A stretch of 15,425 nt of DNA from a virus. Taxonomy: Duplodnaviria > Heunggongvirae > Uroviricota > Caudoviricetes. Shown piece by piece: positions 2,581-13,789 of this stretch. Location of the stretch: the IMG/VR virus record IMGVR_UViG_2698536647_000007. One strand, 5' to 3'. The position numbers and the translations under genes were made by a program. The notes under the pieces were generated by a model. That model was given only the letters and a program-made list of their open reading frames with translations, was not told the DNA's origin and ran no database searches. Position 1 is the first letter of the stretch. Each line of letters begins with the position of its first letter.

Positions 2581-2778
2581 CACTTTCTTAAATCTAACGA
2601 CAGATGGCTAACATTTAAGTATTGTGAAATATTATCAAATGTAATCATCATTGATTTACAAAAGATACATTTTGCCCCGAAAGGATTTCTGTCAGAAACA
2701 TCAAAAGATGATGTTCTATACTGAGAACCATGGCAACACGGGCATCTAAAGTGAATATGGTTTGTAATATTTTCTACC

Positions 2779-2991
2779 TCAAAGTGCCACTACATGAACA
2801 GCTGCAGGGCCTTTAGGTCCGTTCTCAATACCAAATTCGACTTCCTGATTCTCAGTTAACGTTTTGAAATCGTTGCTCTGAATAGCTGAGAAATGCACAA
2901 ACACATCTTTGCTACCATCTTTCGGCGTGATGAAACCAAAACCTTTTTCAGGGTTAAACCATTTCACTAAACCAGTCATTTTGTTAGACAT
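2779..2991 (-). CDS. cspI: Cold-shock protein CspI, 70 aa
   Basis: [70 protein letters not shown], recognised as CspI. The track ORF starts one Met earlier (2994). Confidence 0.9.
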
Positions 2992-3327
2992 CATTATTAC
3001 CTTTTGAAGAAGTTAGCCCTTGGGCAGAATGGTCCGAAAAAAAATATCAGAGAGAAAAACCAACAAGGAAATCTCAAGAGGTACAAATAATAAAATTATA
3101 ACAATGACTGCTTCAGATAATTTTGTAACAAACCAGAACACCATTAACGCATGATTAACCAACCATAGCAAGGATTACTTTTGTAAAGAAAAACACACGG
3201 ATGAAACAATAGCTTTATTTATTAATAAAACGTGTCATTCTGTCTAATGACCTTTTATCTTACCCTTAAGATTTCAAGGATTTTGACTCATGGAAGAGTC
3301 CTTTTTATTTAAATTTCACATTCAGCG

Positions 3328-5385: not shown

Positions 5386-5663
5386 ATTGTGGTGCTTTTT
5401 GTGGGAGTCATCCACTTACGCACTTTGTTTTGCCATGCCAGCAGTTAGCTTCTGCTGTAAAACTATTCATGCAGCAAACCTGCACTTCACCACAATGGTT
5501 AGCATACTTTTCCTGATTAAGATTTTGCCAAATATGCTGGCCATTGTTTCATGTATTGGACCTCCTTAATTTTTATTAAAGAAATCCAATATTCACTACT
5601 CTGTCCGTATCTCTACTCAGGCATCAGCCTTCTTCGTTATCGTATACAGACGAGCGATGAATT

Positions 5664-5879
5664 TTAATCAGTAATGATGACATTTGCTGCTGCAGGACCT
5701 TTAGCACCACTCTCTATAGAGAAGGTAACCTTTTGACCTTCAAATAAGGTTCGATAATTATCATTCTGAATCGCAGAAAAATGCACAAACACATCTTTAC
5801 TACCATCAACAGGAGAAATAAAGCCGAAACCTTTATCAGCGTTAAACCATTTTACTAAACCAGTCATTTTATTTGACAT
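5664..5879 (-). CDS. cspB: Cold-shock protein CspB, 71 aa
   Basis: [67 protein letters not shown]..., recognised as CspB. About 300 bp of divergent leader is shared with cspF. Confidence 0.9.
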
Positions 5880-6179
5880 TCTACATTCCTTAACTTGAGC
5901 CTTTCGGCATAAATGGTTTGCATAACAGAAACGACTTCGTACTTAATTGGAGAGACTCAAAGAAGGAATAAGTGAATAACACCTGAAATGAGAACTGCTT
6001 TAGTAAACTACTTCGTATATCGTCTGTTCTTCAAACCGACGCAATCATTAACGCATAGTTGAACATATGAAGCAATGTTTATTTTAGACATCCAGCCATC
6101 TTCAACCCCATCAAAAAACTATAGCTTTCTTCAGGAACGTGTGTATAGTGCGCCAAGTTATCAGTATTAAGGAATTTTT

Positions 6180-8655: not shown

Positions 8656-8869
8656 TGTTCAACCGCCCCGCCCGCTTCGTCTTACGATATTCGTCATAAA
8701 CTTTGGGATCATACTGAAGCTCCCCGCCAGATGCCTCCTGTAGACGCATCGCGCGACCTTCGGGAACTAAATCCCCTTTCCAGCTATAAAGCGAAGCCAA
8801 ACGAATACCAGCTGCTTGTGCAAGTTTTGTTTTTGAACCGAAATACAAAAGAGCGTCAGTTTTAAGCAT
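8639..8869 (-). CDS. dicC: DicC, Cro-like regulator, 76 aa
   Basis: MLKTDALLYFGSKTKLAQAAGIRLASLYSWKGDLVPEGRAMRLQEASGGELQYDPKVYDEYRKTKRAGRLNNENHS, recognised as DicC. AGGTG lies 6 nt upstream of the ATG. Divergent from dicA. Confidence 0.9.
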   Translation of the reverse strand: MLKTDALLYFGSKTKLAQAAGIRLASLYSWKGDLVPEGRAMRLQEASGGELQYDPKVYDEYRKTKRAGRLNNENHS

Positions 8870-8883
8870 TTAAAACACCTTGA

Positions 8884-8950
8884 TTGTTAGTCATAACTAA
8901 CAAAATAGATGTTAACAAAAACATAGTCAATACGATTTAGCATTAGCTAA
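8884..8950. promoter_or_regulatory. dicC/dicA divergent control region: two 14-bp operator palindromes plus a candidate dicC promoter
   Basis: Perfect palindromes TTAGTcataACTAA (8887-8900) and TTAGCattaGCTAA (8937-8950). On the minus strand TTGACT (8925-8930), 17 nt spacer, TATTTT (8902-8907) precedes the first operator and dicC. Confidence 0.6.
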
Positions 8951-8952
8951 TT

Positions 8953-9360
8953 ATGGATACAAAAAATTTAACTATCGGCGAACGCATTAGGTATCGTCGG
9001 AAAAACCTCAAACACACCCAAAGGTCTCTTGCTAAAGCCCTGAAAATCTCCCATGTGTCTGTTTCACAATGGGAACGGGATGATAGTGAACCTACAGGGA
9101 AGAACCTTTTTGCCCTCAGCAAAGTATTGCAATGCTCACCAACATGGATTCTATTTGGCGATGAAGACAAGCAATCTACAACACCTGTTGAGAAGCCAGT
9201 TGCCTTATCTCCCAAAGAACTAGAGCTCCTTGAGCTGTTTAATGCACTGCCAGAATCAGAACAGGATACCCAGCTCGCCGAAATGCGAGCTCGAGTAAAA
9301 AACTTCAATAAACTCTTTGAAGAATTACTAAAAGCCCGTCAGCGGACAAATAAAAGATAA
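8953..9360 (+). CDS. dicA: DicA, HTH (XRE-type) repressor of the dicB operon, 135 aa
   Basis: MDTKNLTIGERIRYRRKNLKHTQRSLAKALKISHVSVSQWERDD..., recognised as DicA with an N-terminal helix-turn-helix. Confidence 0.9.
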   Translation: MDTKNLTIGERIRYRRKNLKHTQRSLAKALKISHVSVSQWERDDSEPTGKNLFALSKVLQCSPTWILFGDEDKQSTTPVEKPVALSPKELELLELFNALPESEQDTQLAEMRARVKNFNKLFEELLKARQRTNKR

Positions 9361-9420
9361 CATCATCAATGAGTTATCTTTTACCACATTAATTATGTTA
9401 GCCATAACATACAAAATCAC

Positions 9421-9449
9421 TTGACCAATATGTTAGCCATAGCTAATCT
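9421..9449 (+). promoter_or_regulatory. Candidate dicB-operon promoter overlapped by a DicA-type operator
   Basis: TTGACC (9421-9426), 17 nt spacer, TAATCT (9444-9449). The perfect palindrome TTAGCcataGCTAA (9433-9446) sits in the spacer and -10; an imperfect copy lies at 9398-9410. Confidence 0.5.
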
Positions 9450-9526
9450 TGTTTACATCAACACACCGCACGGTGTTCTCAGCAAACAGTTCCGCTACCC
9501 CGGCGTTAAGGGGAAATGAGGTCAGC

Positions 9527-9679
9527 ATGGATACTATCGATCTTGGCAACAACGAGTCTCTGGTATACGGCGTGTTTCCAAACCAAGACGGCACGTTCAC
9601 GGCGATGACGTATACCAAAAGCAAAACGTTTAAAACCGAAGCTGGCGCGCGTCGCTGGTTAGCCAGAAATACTGACTGA
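9527..9679 (+). CDS. ydfA: YdfA-like small protein, 50 aa, first gene of the dicB operon
   Basis: The track ORF starts at 9449, but ATG 9527 has GAGGT upstream and gives MDTIDLGNNESLVYGVFPNQDGTFTAMTYTKSKTFKTEAGARRWLARNTD. Stop overlaps the next ATG. Confidence 0.75.
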   Translation: MDTIDLGNNESLVYGVFPNQDGTFTAMTYTKSKTFKTEAGARRWLARNTD

Positions 9680-9690
9680 TGAGGTTGACG

Positions 9691-10065
9691 ATGGAATTTA
9701 AAGATTTACCAATGCCATTCCAGGAAATGGCAGCGAATATAGTTCATTCTCAATTGGCGACTCTTGACCTGAGTACCGTAGAAAAAGAAACCATCGATAA
9801 TATATCCGGTAACGTGCGTCGTGCCTTTATCGGACTATACGAAGAGAAGCAACTCTCTGATAACCAGGATTTACATAAAAAAGACTTCCTGGAATTAATG
9901 GACATCATTGATAAGGGATTTGGCTTGTTAATGAAACAGAAAGGGATTCGAATGAACCCCCTTGAAAATTACTTCGCAACAAGAAGCATTAATTCCTGTG
10001 ATTTAAAGCATCCCGCCACAGACGGGAGTGTTATAGTTAGCCATGAGATTTCGATTAATCATTAA
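9691..10065 (+). CDS. YdfB/YdfC-like protein, single 124-aa frame
   Basis: Track ORF 9679..10065; the second ATG at 9691 has GAGG 6 nt upstream (MEFKDLPMPFQEMAANIVHSQLATLDLS...). I recall two short ORFs (ydfB, ydfC) annotated here in K-12; in this window the frame is continuous. Confidence 0.55.
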   Translation: MEFKDLPMPFQEMAANIVHSQLATLDLSTVEKETIDNISGNVRRAFIGLYEEKQLSDNQDLHKKDFLELMDIIDKGFGLLMKQKGIRMNPLENYFATRSINSCDLKHPATDGSVIVSHEISINH

Positions 10066-10276
10066 AATCAATAGCTATTTCAATAAGTGATGCCATCTCG
10101 TTGCATTTTGTTGAATTCATCTTACGTAATGAGTCACAAATATCTGATGGTTGTGATGCTGCTGGCAACTTAGCCGCAAGTAGCATAATTGCCGTTTTTA
10201 TAGCAGTGAGTTCATCCGCAAGTCCAGCAGGAGAAACATCATGGTTCAACTGGATATTTACATTTTTACTAGTCAT
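10055..10276 (-). CDS. Candidate small protein, 73 aa, antisense to the dicB operon, with a strong Shine-Dalgarno sequence
   Basis: ORF track 10055..10276(-). Minus strand reads caGGAGGgggaaATG, a GGAGG 5 nt from the start. Convergently overlaps the end of the YdfB/C-like ORF by 11 nt. No recognisable family. Confidence 0.4.
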   Translation of the reverse strand: MTSKNVNIQLNHDVSPAGLADELTAIKTAIMLLAAKLPAASQPSDICDSLRKMNSTKCNEMASLIEIAIDFND

Positions 10277-10612
10277 TTCCCCCTCCTGATGGGTTGGTAA
10301 TTAAGGAGTTCTCCACGGGTTAGGTGGAGTGCGTGCGCCGGACACGGGTGAGCATCCGGCAGCACCAGTTTACCACTGGTTAATTTTCCCTGAAAAGTCA
10401 GGGCATAACGCGAAAGCGCACGGCGAGGCTGTTAGTTCATAAATGGTCTGTCGTTAAATTTTCGTCGACCGTGCGCTTCCGGTTGTGGCAATCCGCGAAA
10501 TAGCGCGGCGGTAAGTATGGCGGGGTTATCCCTTCCCCGTTGAGGACACCGGGTTGTCAGGTTGACCATACGCTTAAGTGACAACCCCGCTGCAACGCCC
10601 TCTGTTATCAAT

Positions 10613-10670
10613 TTTCTGGTGACGTTTGGCGGTATCAGTTTTACTTCGTGACTGCTCTGCCGCCCTTTTT
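10613..10670 (+). ncRNA. dicF: DicF small RNA (antisense regulator of ftsZ and other mRNAs)
   Basis: TTTCTGGTGACGTTTGGCGGTATCAGTTTTACTTCGTGACTGCTCTGCCGCCCTTTTT matches the DicF sequence as I remember it, with a GGCGG...CCGCC stem and U-tail at the 3' end. It lies between the ydfB/C region and dicB. Exact 5' end is approximate. Confidence 0.8.
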
Positions 10671-10839
10671 AAAGTGAATTTTGTGATGCGGTGAATGCGG
10701 CTAAGCGCACGCGGAACAGTTAAAACCAAAAACAGTGTTATGGGTGGATTCTCTGCATCCGGCGTTAATTGTTAACTGGTTAACGTCACCTGGAGGCACC
10801 AGGCACCGCATCACAAAATTCATTGTTGAGGACGCGATA

Positions 10840-11028
10840 ATGGAAACGTTATTACCAAACGTCAATACGTCTGAAGGTTGTTTTGAAATTGGTGTCAGAA
10901 TCAGTAACCCTGCATTTACTGAAGATGCCATTAATAAGAGAAAACACGAACGGGAGTTATTAAATAAAATATGCATTCTTTCAATGCTGGCCCGTTTACG
11001 CCTGATGCAAAAAGGACGCTGGCAATGA
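10840..11028 (+). CDS. dicB: DicB cell-division inhibitor, 62 aa
   Basis: The track ORF (10735..11028) is longer, but ATG 10840 preceded by GAGGA gives METLLPNVNTSEGCFEIGVRISNPAFTEDAINKRKHERELLNKICILSMLARLRLMQKGRWQ, recognised as DicB. Confidence 0.9.
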   Translation: METLLPNVNTSEGCFEIGVRISNPAFTEDAINKRKHERELLNKICILSMLARLRLMQKGRWQ

Positions 11029-11228
11029 ATACAGCATTTGCACTCGTTCTGACAGTTTTTCTTAATACAGGCGAACCAGTCGATCTTGTTATTGGCATAC
11101 ATGACTCAATGAAAGAATGCATGGCTGCCGCAGCGGAACAAAAAATTCCCGGTAACTGCTATCCGGTCGATAAAGTTATTCACATGGACAATAACGAAAT
11201 CCCGGCAGGACTTAAAACAGCACCGTAA
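11025..11228 (+). CDS. ydfD: YdfD-like small membrane protein, 67 aa
   Basis: ATG overlaps the dicB stop (ATGA). MNTAFALVLTVFLNTGEPVDLVIGIHDSMKECMAAAAEQKIPGNCYPVDKVIHMDNNEIPAGLKTAP has a hydrophobic N-terminus. YdfD has been reported as a lysis-inducing protein. Confidence 0.75.
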   Translation: MNTAFALVLTVFLNTGEPVDLVIGIHDSMKECMAAAAEQKIPGNCYPVDKVIHMDNNEIPAGLKTAP

Positions 11229-11308
11229 TTAATATCCGGTTTCATTTTTATATGCCAGCAATGGCAGGGATTTGTTCACCCTTAAATCTGTAATGAGGTT
11301 AAAACAAA

Positions 11309-13789
11309 ATGAGTAAAGTCTTTATTTGCGCCGCCATTCCGGACGAACAGGCAATAAAGGAAGAAGGTGCAGTCGCTGTAGCCACTGCCATTGAAGCCGG
11401 CGACGAACGCCGCGCCCGTGCCAAATTTACCTGGCAATTCCTGGAGCAATATCCGGCTGCTCAGGACTGCGCTTATAAATTTCTTGTCTGCGAGGATAAA
11501 CCCGGCATGCCCCGCCCTGCCATCGACTCCTGGGATACCGAATATATGCTGGAAAACCGCTGGGATGAGGAAGGCGCTTCCTTTGTTCCGGTCGAACCAG
11601 AATCCGATCCGATGAACGTCAATTTTGACAAGCTGTCCCTTGAAGTACAGAACGCGGTCCTGGTTAAGTTCGGTACATGTGAAAACATCACCGTTGATAT
11701 GGTGATTAGTGCACAGGAATTGTTGCAGGAGGACATGGCAACATTCGACGGGCATATCGTTGAGGCACTGATGAAAATGCCTGAAGTTAACGTCATGTAT
11801 TCAGAACTAAAGCTGTTCGCCATCGGGTGGGTTAAACATAAATGTAAGCCGGGCGCAAAATGGCCTGAGATCCAGACAGAATTACGCACCTGGAAAAAAC
11901 GTCGCGAAGACGAACGCAAAGAAACCGGGAAATACACGTCTGTTGTTGATCTTGCCCGCGCCAGAGTCAACCGGCAGCACACTGAAAACTCAGCAGGAAA
12001 AATCAACCCCGCCACTACCGCCATTCGTCGCGAATACAAGCAGACATGGAAAACGCTGGATGAAGAACTGGCCTACGCTCTGTGGCCTGGCGATATTAAT
12101 GCCGGAAACATTGACGGCAGCATCCATCGCTGGGCAAAAAATGAAGTTATCGACAAAGATCGCGAAGACTGGAAGCGCATTTCCGCATCAATGCGCAAAC
12201 AACCCGATGCCGTTCGCTACGACCGTCAGACTATTTTTGGCCTTGTCCGTGAGCGTCCGATCGACATTCACAAAGATCCCGTGGCACTGAACAAATACAT
12301 CACTGAATACCTGGCGACAAAGGGCGTGTTTGAGGATGAAGAAACAGACCAGAACACTACTGATATTCTCCAGCCGTCAGCAGCACAAACTGATGCAGTG
12401 GAAACTGAAGTATCTGATACCCAAAAAAATGAAAGCACGCTGGAAACTGAACCATCTGTAGAGCGTGAGGGGCCGTTCTACTTCCTTTTCACCGATAAGG
12501 ATGGCGAAAAATATGGTCGTGCAAACAAACTTTCTGGTCTGAATAAGGCGCTGGCTGCAGGGGCTACTGAAATCACGAAAGAAGAATATCTTGCCCGCAA
12601 AAACGGCACATACTCAGGTTCACAACAAAATACTGGTGCATCTGACACGACCGCACAACCGGAGCCGGTAAAAGTTACCGCTGACGAAGTAAACAAAATT
12701 ATGCAGGCAGCCAATATCAGCCAGCCTGACGCCGATAAGTTGCTTGCTGCCTCTCGCGGAGAATTTGTTGCAGGGATTAGCGACCCGAATGATCCGAAAT
12801 GGGTGAAGGGGATTGAAACCCGCGATTCTGTAAACCAGAACCAGCAAGAATCGGAACAGAACGACCAAAAAGCGGAACAAAACAGCCCAAATGCGTTACA
12901 AAACGAGCCAGAAACGAAACAACCTGAGCCAGTAGCGCAACAGGAAGCGGAAAAAGTCTGCACCGCCTGCGGTCAGACCGGCGACGGCAACTGCCCTGAT
13001 TGTGGCGCGGTGATGGGCGACGCAACATACCAGGAAACATTCGATGAAGAGAATCAGGTTGAAGTTCAGGAAAATGATCCGAAGGAAATGGAAGGCGCTG
13101 AACATCCACACAAGGAGAATGCTGGCAGCGCTCAGGACCACGCCAGCGATAATGAAACTGGCGAGACGGCAGATCCCTTAATTGTGGTGAACGGTCATCA
13201 CGTTATCACATCCACCAGCAGAGTATGGTACCACCTGATGATCGACCTTGAAACAATGGGAACCAACACCAATGCGCCCATCGTGGTTATTGGTGCGGTT
13301 TTCTTCGACCCACAAACAGGGGAAATCGGGCCAGTATTTTATATCGTTATCAGTCTGACTGACGCAATGAATACAGGGGCTGTTCCTGACGGTGGAACCA
13401 TCGAATGGTGGCTGAAGCAGTCCAGTGAAGCCAGAGCTGCCATTTTAACAGACCAGGTAAAACTGAAGGATGCCCTTTCGCGGTTTCGGGAGTTCATCAA
13501 CGAATACTCAGATGAAAAATTCGTTCAGGTATGGGGTAATGGTGCAACTTTCGATAACGCAATTTTGCGCACCTCATACGAACGTCTGGACATCCCCTGC
13601 CCGTGGCGCTACTACAACGATCGCGATGTACGCACAATCGTTGAGCTGGGAAAAACAATCGACTTTGATGCCAGAACCGTTATTCCATTCGAAGGCGTGC
13701 GCCACAATGCACTGGATGACGCCCGTCACCAGGCAAAATACGTTACAGCTACGATACAAAAACTGATCCCGAGTCAGGCTGATTTTTAA
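11309..13789 (+). CDS. Large multidomain protein, 826 aa: N-terminal region of unknown function, acidic linker, C-x2-C-x7-C-x2-C zinc ribbon, C-terminal DEDDh-type 3'-5' exonuclease domain
   Basis: ORF track 11309..13789(+), GAGG 10 nt upstream. C-terminal motifs: MIDLETMG (D-x-E), [12 protein letters not shown] (Asp), HNALDDARH (H-x4-D). Zinc ribbon [16 protein letters not shown]. Occupies the K-12 ydfE slot, which I recall as a short IS2-truncated remnant. Confidence 0.85.

Follow-up and report, generated by a model that had tools for sequence, protein, structure and literature searches.

Organization of the antisense locus

The DNA analysed here, referred to as the window, is a stretch of 15,425 nucleotides (nt) from a Caudoviricetes virus (IMG/VR record IMGVR_UViG_2698536647_000007), in which a dicB operon resembling that of the Qin prophage of Escherichia coli K-12 carries, on its minus strand, a 73-codon open reading frame (ORF). 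We find that this ORF is a genuine conserved small prophage gene, and that the leader preceding it is modular, conserved and structured with covariation, being present ahead of at least eight other types of ORF (hereafter cargo) in other prophages. The positions of these elements and of their neighbors are collected in Table 1. An initial annotation of the window had described the ORF, its near-consensus Shine-Dalgarno (SD) sequence, its convergent 11-nt overlap with the plus-strand neighbor (10055-10065) and its antisense position inside the dicB operon, and all of these assignments held. On the minus strand the sequence 5' of the ATG reads TCAGGAGGGGGAAATG, with a gap of 5 nt between GGAGG and the start codon; the internal methionine codons of the 73-amino acid (aa) protein are M31, M53 and M61.

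The same annotation had supposed the region to be annotated on the plus strand only in K-12, a view that must be revised, because RefSeq/PGAP has the minus-strand ORF wherever it is present. The gene is thus already catalogued, always under the label 'hypothetical protein', and it is rare, being found in 88 of 5426 complete E. coli genomes; strain IHE3034, of type ST95, is one carrier.

Table 1. Features of the antisense locus and its surroundings in the window (HP, hairpin; CDS, coding sequence; sRNA, small RNA).
Feature	Position	Strand	Basis or detail
Protein-coding gene, 73 aa	10055..10276	-	ATG ORF; phrog_7249; RefSeq CDS WP_000202161.1
Shine-Dalgarno AGGAGG	10282..10287	-	5 nt from ATG (10274-10276), counted from GGAGG
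Predicted 5' leader, 84 nt, three hairpins	10277..10360	-	RNAalifold consensus
HP1	10352-10360 with 10337-10345	-	GCCGGAUGC/GUGUCCGGC, at the extreme 5' end
HP2	10324-10329 with 10311-10316	-	CUCCAC/GUGGAG
HP3	10303-10308 (anti-SD CTCCTT) with 10282-10287 (SD)	-	CUCCU(U)/AGGAG(G)
Predicted sigma-70 promoter	10367..10396	-	-35 TTTTCA 10391-10396, 18-nt spacer, extended -10 TGgTAAACT 10367-10375
Terminator-like hairpin	9940..9963	-	~95 nt past the stop codon; 10 pairs then CTGTTTCATT; consensus scan
Convergent operon gene, 128 aa (or 124 aa from MEFKDLP)	9679..10065	+	phrog_6937, 1e-78
Replacement cassette relative to K-12 Qin, in place of ydfB-ydfC	9670..10291		blastn versus NC_000913 Qin
DicF sRNA gene	10614..10665	+	Rfam RF00039, 75.2 bits
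dicB	10840-11028	+	translation; follows DicF in the operon

Evidence that the reading frame is coding

Shuffling of the surrounding 401 nt gave an ORF of at least 73 aa in 5% of cases, so that length by itself is weak evidence for a gene; what raises the ORF above chance is that its frame, SD and start codon are kept in homologs whose flanks are unrelated. A search with the protein sequence recovered homologs with a conserved reading frame, which is open in all of those at 90%, 73% (L003, a prophage of Salmonella Muenchen) and 63% (L005) identity. Nei-Gojobori estimates made in the ORF frame gave ratios of nonsynonymous to synonymous substitution (dN/dS) of 0.09 (dS 1.7) versus L003 and 0.18 versus L005, values to be read with dS saturated. 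The differences are dominated by third codon positions (15/5/34 by codon position for L003 and 19/9/37 for L005), and every frame other than that of the ORF is interrupted by stops in the homolog comparison. The SD is kept as GGAGGG in five protein lineages as well as ahead of at least eight different types of cargo ORF. A plus-strand ORF of 62 aa (10101-10289) was considered as a gene and rejected, since it contains three stops in each of L003 and L005.

A structured, SD-masking leader

Conservation extends over ~88 nt 5' of the ATG among the window, L003 and L005, the sequence further upstream being unrelated, and the same leader stands ahead of P0027 (L042) and P0019 (L045), the proteins of which are only ~30% identical. 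The three hairpins of the consensus structure also occur in the minimum free energy folds of most independent lineages. Pair counts were made on 35 distinct leaders, with shuffled and slid controls: 95.3% of cells are paired and five pairs are changed on both sides, a number reached by none of 500 shuffles, with slid controls giving 0-2. Covariation affects four of the six pairs of HP2, the variants of which include CCCAAC/GTTGGG (L003), CGTCACG/CGTGACG (L042) and CTCCAT/ATGGAG (L057), together with the wobble forms CTCCAT/GTGGAG and CTCCGC/GTGGAG. HP3, a short helix of 5-6 base pairs closing a 17-nt loop, switches from CTCCT/AGGAG to CTCCAT/ATGGAG by a compensatory exchange of UA and AU. The suggestion that the SD might be coincidental is refuted by these results, as the SD belongs to the conserved leader and pairs with a co-varying anti-SD.

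An anti-SD:SD helix combined with a 5'-terminal stem-loop is likewise found in known SD-masking 5' untranslated regions (UTRs), such as RNA thermometers and the hok and tisB leaders. With respect to type I toxin-antitoxin systems, a structured leader masking the SD is present (HP3, with its compensatory change), but the 73-aa product does not resemble the short hydrophobic toxins encoded by such mRNAs, having a maximum Kyte-Doolittle hydropathy of 1.33 and an isoelectric point (pI) of 4.8. We know of no cognate sRNA or temperature dependence for a leader of the HP3 type. Rfam returned nothing at 10277-10400, even at E values up to 10, DicF being the only match in this part of the window. The possibility that the leader encodes an upstream ORF or N-terminal extension (MLTRVRRT...) was rejected, because 8 of the 35 variants have ATT or GAA in place of the ATG and the stop is gained or lost by a single loop base.

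In two Edwardsiella sequences (L057, L066) and in L058 the leader precedes a proline-rich peptide of 30-32 aa (MRINQFGGTERPRPDGQVTYRPTPAPKPKK). The arms of HP2 and HP3 are identical in these leaders (CTCCAT/ATGGAG twice), which would permit alternative pairings.

Predicted promoter and transcript ends

In five unrelated classes of flank, the first conserved base is preceded, at a distance of exactly 6 nt, by a TAnnnT hexamer (E. coli TAAACT, L005 TGaTAAAAT, L042 TACTAT, L057 TATTTT and L063 TGaTAACAT). From this -10-like hexamer at a fixed spacing, a transcript start at ~10360 (G) is predicted for the window, downstream of the putative sigma-70 promoter. The terminator-like hairpin beyond the stop codon may mark the 3' end of the antisense mRNA, an assignment that is uncertain, since the number of such sites is not above that in shuffled sequences. 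At 10364-10380 the window is unlike other E. coli copies, with ACCAGTGGTAAACTGGT forming a perfect hairpin that contains the TAAACT box; read on the plus strand, the same segment is a terminator-like stem followed by TTAATTTT.

Distribution of the leader and its interchangeable cargo

Pattern scans located the leader in genomes of Edwardsiella, Pluralibacter, E. albertii, Shigella and E. coli and in more than 119 viral contigs. The at least eight other ORF types that follow leader and SD are all without known function: four match PHROGs lacking a functional assignment (phrog_2605, phrog_10348, phrog_18692 and phrog_4753), and a 91-aa type, a 96-aa type and the 30-32-aa proline-rich peptide have no PHROG. 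Pfam gave no match to any of the cargo ORFs, and hhalign comparison of two of them (91 and 92 aa) with the 73-aa family showed both to be unrelated to it. An attempt to assign function by association with the other cargo failed, all being of unknown function.

No SD or ORF follows the leader in 91 of the 168 instances that were parsed. Most of these are K-12-like, the leader running straight into the antisense of the ydfC 3' end, and a few are truncated or chance matches. The Qin prophage of K-12 itself has such a cargo-less leader, between ydfC and dicF, where it is unannotated, the base equivalent to window 10360 being at ~1,649,130. Of the 5426 complete E. coli genomes, 3068 have the promoter-plus-leader segment. 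Units of leader and cargo are also found in places that lack dicF. This widespread leader, absent from Rfam, is new here.

The arrangement may be compared with that of phage morons, autonomous accessory genes that lie within a late or early operon and have a promoter to themselves, lambda bor being one that is antisense to the late operon. The window gene is similarly small and of lower GC content, has its own (predicted) promoter, is not tied to its neighbors and lies at mosaic junctions, and its cassette is likewise exchanged between unrelated phages. It differs in that the structured 5' leader and its SD are shared and stay in place when the ORF that follows them is exchanged, a property that we have not seen described for morons.

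Two assemblies with the leader, L058 (Chryseobacterium sp. 18061) and L064 (a Collinsella metagenome-assembled genome), consist of enterobacterial prophage sequence in this part; the L064 copy is K-12-like, and ~150 nt of its promoter-leader stretch is nearly identical to the common E. coli copies. These assemblies are likely contaminated or mis-binned.

The protein family

The 73-aa protein matches phrog_7249, a phage family without an assigned function, from end to end (E=3e-45; residues 1-73 align with profile positions 1-73). When 1.8e9 representatives were searched exhaustively with a profile, 17 matches were obtained, ~12 of which are diverged clusters of 71-88 aa; a length of 71-75 aa is retained down to ~30% identity. 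The clusters have in common the motif S-x-x-G-L-x-x-E-L-x-A-[IL]-K-x-A-[IV]-x-L-[LI]-A-x-[KR]-[IL]-P (in short form ELxAIKxAIxLLAAKLP) and a C-terminal EL[AS]xLI helix. AlphaFold (AF2), run with a 16-sequence alignment, gave a model with a predicted local distance difference test score of 83 and a predicted template modeling score of 0.69, with helices at residues 16-35, 44-52 and 56-72. The protein is acidic and has no predicted membrane span, the hydropathy maximum given above referring to a 19-residue window. Profile searches of Pfam, NCBIfam and the PDB returned no matches and no informative fold or family, and the PADLOC profile hidden Markov models contain no family for the protein, for its 128-aa partner or for three distant relatives. 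A protein-pattern scan of genome contigs gave no confirmed relatives.

The product would be soluble, acidic and built of three helices, and binding to a partner protein is its most likely mode of action. Because of the slot that the gene occupies, we rank first, as a guess, an accessory function expressed in the lysogen, such as phage exclusion or host modulation.

Two sets of database entries touch on the family. The 138-aa gp050 of Salmonella phage 118970_sal3 (L006 3788-4204; phrog_36251) is over-called, the true product starting at M65 and being 74 aa long; its N-terminal half is a Cys/Arg/His-rich translation of upstream non-coding DNA, including the block (GTGCCTGTCTTTTAACCACRTCAGGCTCGGTGG) described in the next section. 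P0006 and P0007 (E. coli / E. marmotae) are gene calls that retain just the final 24 aa of the 73-aa protein, behind an unrelated N terminus; this indicates that some genomes carry deleted forms of the cassette.

Antisense placement and the sieB slot

The contexts examined comprise the DNA of ten further clusters together with L003, L005 and Salmonella phage 118970_sal3, or ~13 independent cases. In all of them the family gene lies on the strand opposite its neighbors, and wherever a neighbor is called, the 3' ends of the two genes overlap, by 4-119 nt. Most copies belong to the early-left operon, where a cI/S24-type repressor lies two to four genes upstream of them; two lineages sit between Q or RusA and the holin/lysis genes. 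The 31% identical P0019 (L045/L046; TTG start) lies in a Qin-like operon, after genes like ydfA-ydfB-ydfC and before DicB, that is, in the slot of the window gene. This strict antisense placement of the family, and its occupation of the slot used by sieB, are new here.

In lambda, sieB (34482-35036, plus strand) is antisense in the pL operon and tail to tail with N; in the record of P22, sieB and esc are annotated together with the promoter and RNA start site of sieB. The window gene, like sieB in lambda, P22 and Rac, is antisense in a repressor-controlled early-left operon and tail to tail with the preceding gene, and in both cases the operon transcript is antisense to the translation start of the gene. 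The P22 promoter p_sieB, with a -10 of TAAACT 6 nt before the mapped start, has the same hexamer and spacing as the window. Homology of the flanks beyond the -10 was considered and set aside, the alignment being weak and unconvincing. The proteins are unrelated: no link to SieB emerged from Pfam, NCBIfam or PHROG, and the 73-aa acidic product, without a predicted span, contrasts with sieB genes of 184 (lambda) and 192 (P22) codons. The leaders also differ, that of the window being an 84-nt, three-hairpin structure compared with 31 nt in P22.

Translation of P22 sieB is described as being switched by the sas antisense RNA (Ranade & Poteete 1993, cited in PMC12197685 and PMC7067206). We mapped the sas RNA (sequence: PMC13397905) to 2137-2263 on the minus strand of L188 (P22), from which it follows that sas covers the start codon, leader and promoter of sieB and ends exactly in the block GTGCCTGTCTTTTAACCACRTCAGGCTCGGTGG. 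This block lies upstream of lambda sieB, of P22 sieB and of the family members L006, L043 and L049; these distant relatives thus sit in bona fide sieB/sas cassettes, replacing sieB. The same block is immediately upstream of the window-type leader in L058, and a covariance model of the leader gave weak matches upstream of L049, L047 and lambda sieB. With the sieB/sas system the window therefore shares position, orientation and -10, without the sas block.

The 3' block of sas in P22 (L188 2160-2184) is nearly identical to L186 1404-1428 (lambda 34403-34427), which suggests, at the level of sequence, that lambda also has a sas-like RNA; the block can be drawn as an H-type pseudoknot (GCCUG..CCAC..CAGGC..GUGG). 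A block of the sas type also occurs in L081 (5645-5669), in L072, L078 and L087 and in other Qin-like prophages that have the window-type leader, with or without cargo. In prophages of this type the two elements lie on the same strand, several hundred nt apart, and the L081 block overlaps a ydfC-like ORF at its called 5' end. There may thus be two antisense elements in one early-left operon.

The replacement cassette in the Qin-like operon

Comparison with K-12 Qin by blastn gave 96% identity over 8819-9669 (dicC-dicA-ydfA) and 90.5% over 10292-11330 (the spacer before dicF, dicB and ydfD). The 622 bp between these segments have no blastn homology to K-12 Qin, and their proteins are dissimilar to YdfB and YdfC. 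They occupy the interval between ydfA and the dicF spacer in which K-12 has ydfB and ydfC, both on the plus strand. The 128-aa neighbor, which the initial annotation had called YdfB/C-like, is therefore not so, and belongs instead to phrog_6937. The cassette has a GC content of 39% (44.5% for the window) and contains two convergent ORFs, the 128-aa gene on the plus strand and the 73-aa gene on the minus strand. Its right-hand junction falls between leader and SD, and in K-12-like copies the leader diverges exactly after ...TTACCAACC; of the antisense cassette, K-12 Qin has kept no more than promoter and leader, which are joined to the ydfC 3' end. The 128-aa partner is mosaic, its N-terminal ~55 aa being conserved while the C-terminal part varies with the antisense cargo. 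The 73-aa gene is not tied to its 128-aa partner, nor to DicF/DicB.

Between the antisense promoter and dicF (10400-10613, plus strand) lies a GC-rich, hairpin-rich spacer, conserved in Salmonella phages, which may be a structured part of the dicF precursor. It gives rise to many spurious minus-strand 'proteins' in databases (P0009-P0014, e.g. ...SLRRMVNLTTRCP...), the corresponding window ORF being 10432-10611.

Proposed mechanism and alternatives

We consider it likely that the 73-aa ORF is a real, autonomously expressed gene, lying antisense within the early-left (dicB) operon that DicA represses, placed and oriented as sieB is, with its translation set by the leader. A weak sigma-70 promoter (TTTTCA, 18 nt, TGgTAAACT) would start the mRNA at ~10360. 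Within its 84-nt leader, one stem-loop would form at the 5' terminus and a second, co-varying one after it, followed by an anti-SD (CUCCUU):SD helix, by which, we propose, translation is governed. The mRNA would then be transcribed against the operon, reaching the 3' end of the gene that precedes it there; given this geometry, the two transcription units must converge if the gene is expressed. We infer that the mRNA accumulates while the operon is repressed, i.e. in lysogeny; on derepression, the gene would be opposed by colliding polymerases as well as by the operon RNA, which is complementary to it throughout, comparable to the action of sas on sieB in P22, such that the gene would be shut off and the operon reciprocally damped. 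As the predicted mRNA starts ~250 nt upstream of dicF and runs away from it, the two never overlap, and an effect on DicF/DicB could arise only via collision or RNA pairing upstream, on read-through.

Several points weigh against this proposal. The promoter matches the consensus poorly (8/12) and was not reported by the consensus scan, and no usable transcription start site, RNA-seq or ribosome-profiling record for the locus was found in the K-12 and EDL933 tables. The block GTGCCTGTCTTTTAACCACRTCAGGCTCGGTGG is not in the window, even with up to three mismatches, and sas-like control there is consequently proposed by analogy. Part of the invariance seen in the 3' arm of HP1 is artificial, since the sequences were retrieved with the pattern ACCYGTGTCCGGCGCAC. 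Finally, the two strands of the leader fold about equally well, so that structure or folding energy alone cannot assign the strand.

A different view of the same data is that the RNA is the main product, the promoter and leader serving, through collision or RNA pairing, as an antisense brake on read-through that comes from the dicB-operon promoter and enters the toxic dicF-dicB genes, with the ORFs as interchangeable passengers. The numbers lend this view some weight, in that the promoter-plus-leader segment outnumbers the 73-aa ORF among E. coli genomes by 3068 to 88, over half of the parsed instances (91 of 168, mostly K-12-like) are without SD or ORF, and at least eight cargo types are known. 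We nevertheless think it unlikely. The protein is under strong purifying selection across deep divergence, and a conserved SD with a co-varying anti-SD only makes sense for translation. Cargo-less copies gather HP2 mismatches and truncations (L149, L175, L060, L085), as expected of remnants, and leader-plus-cargo units exist without dicF.

It is improbable that the hairpins serve the plus strand, as processing or termination signals of the ydfABC-dicF-dicB precursor which the minus-strand ORF merely abuts. RNase III and RNase E do process the long untranslated region ahead of dicF to which the segment belongs (PMC5069750, PMC10448788); its complement is as stable as the ORF strand, and there is the terminator-like plus-strand site at 10364-10380. 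However, the leader keeps the same orientation to SD, ATG and ORF in Salmonella, Edwardsiella, Pluralibacter and metagenomic phages that lack DicF, and the conserved block begins 6 nt past a -10-like hexamer in unrelated flanks. In addition, the pairings CTCCAT/GTGGAG and CTCCGC/GTGGAG and two invariant G.U pairs of HP1 can form on the ORF strand only.

The tail-to-tail overlap of the 73-aa and 128-aa genes, and the change of the partner's C-terminal part with the cargo, might be taken to indicate a two-gene module, e.g. a toxin-antitoxin-like or sensor-effector pair. This is very improbable given that the two assort independently: the same partner C terminus occurs beside the unrelated 91-aa cargo, and the 73-aa family occurs beside unrelated partners (L003, where the partner has 57 aa, L044, L047, L049, L051 and L055), with no PADLOC or Pfam matches. 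That the ORF is a chance frame or annotation artefact, as its attainable length in shuffles and the spurious calls in the region (the 138-aa gp050, P0009-P0014) might suggest, is scarcely credible in view of a dN/dS far below 1 with saturated dS, the conservation of length, SD and start, and the confident AF2 model.

Beyond the gene itself, the preferred reading, that of an autonomously expressed antisense gene, can be extended, tentatively and with more doubt than conviction. The leader and promoter might constitute an undescribed portable cis-regulatory RNA module of enterobacterial temperate phages, tying the translation of its cargo to the repression state of the opposed operon through sas-like pairing, and the cargo-less majority, K-12 Qin included, might still fire and brake leaky dicF/dicB expression.

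As a model of toxic genes in cryptic prophages, the dicBF operon has been much studied. Its control has been described as layered but incomplete (PMC10448788), and both that paper and PMC5069750 treat the plus strand only. In more than half of complete E. coli genomes, K-12 among them, the present results place a conserved, predicted antisense promoter and a leader immediately 5' of dicF, and in some strains the module carries a conserved small protein in the slot where other lambdoid phages keep sieB. They also provide a candidate RNA motif and some eight uncharacterized cargo proteins that are plausibly expressed in lysogens. Should expression not be confirmed, the outcome would still be a cleaned-up annotation, in which a gene catalogued as hypothetical is real and its neighbor is not YdfB/C-like.

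Other features of the window

Downstream of dicB and of a DUF1482 gene, the window encodes an 826-aa ORF (11309-13789, plus strand), the N-terminal part of which is RecE (exonuclease VIII)-like by eye and whose counterpart in L001 is labeled 'exonuclease' in RefSeq. On the minus strand there are two full-length matches to the cspA thermoregulator (RF01766), at 2733-3149 and 5648-6040 (110 and 159 bits), and the prophage thus carries two cold-shock-type genes with long 5' UTRs. A further full-length match on the minus strand, at 411-609, is to the Rfam family IS009 (RF02111, 227 bits).

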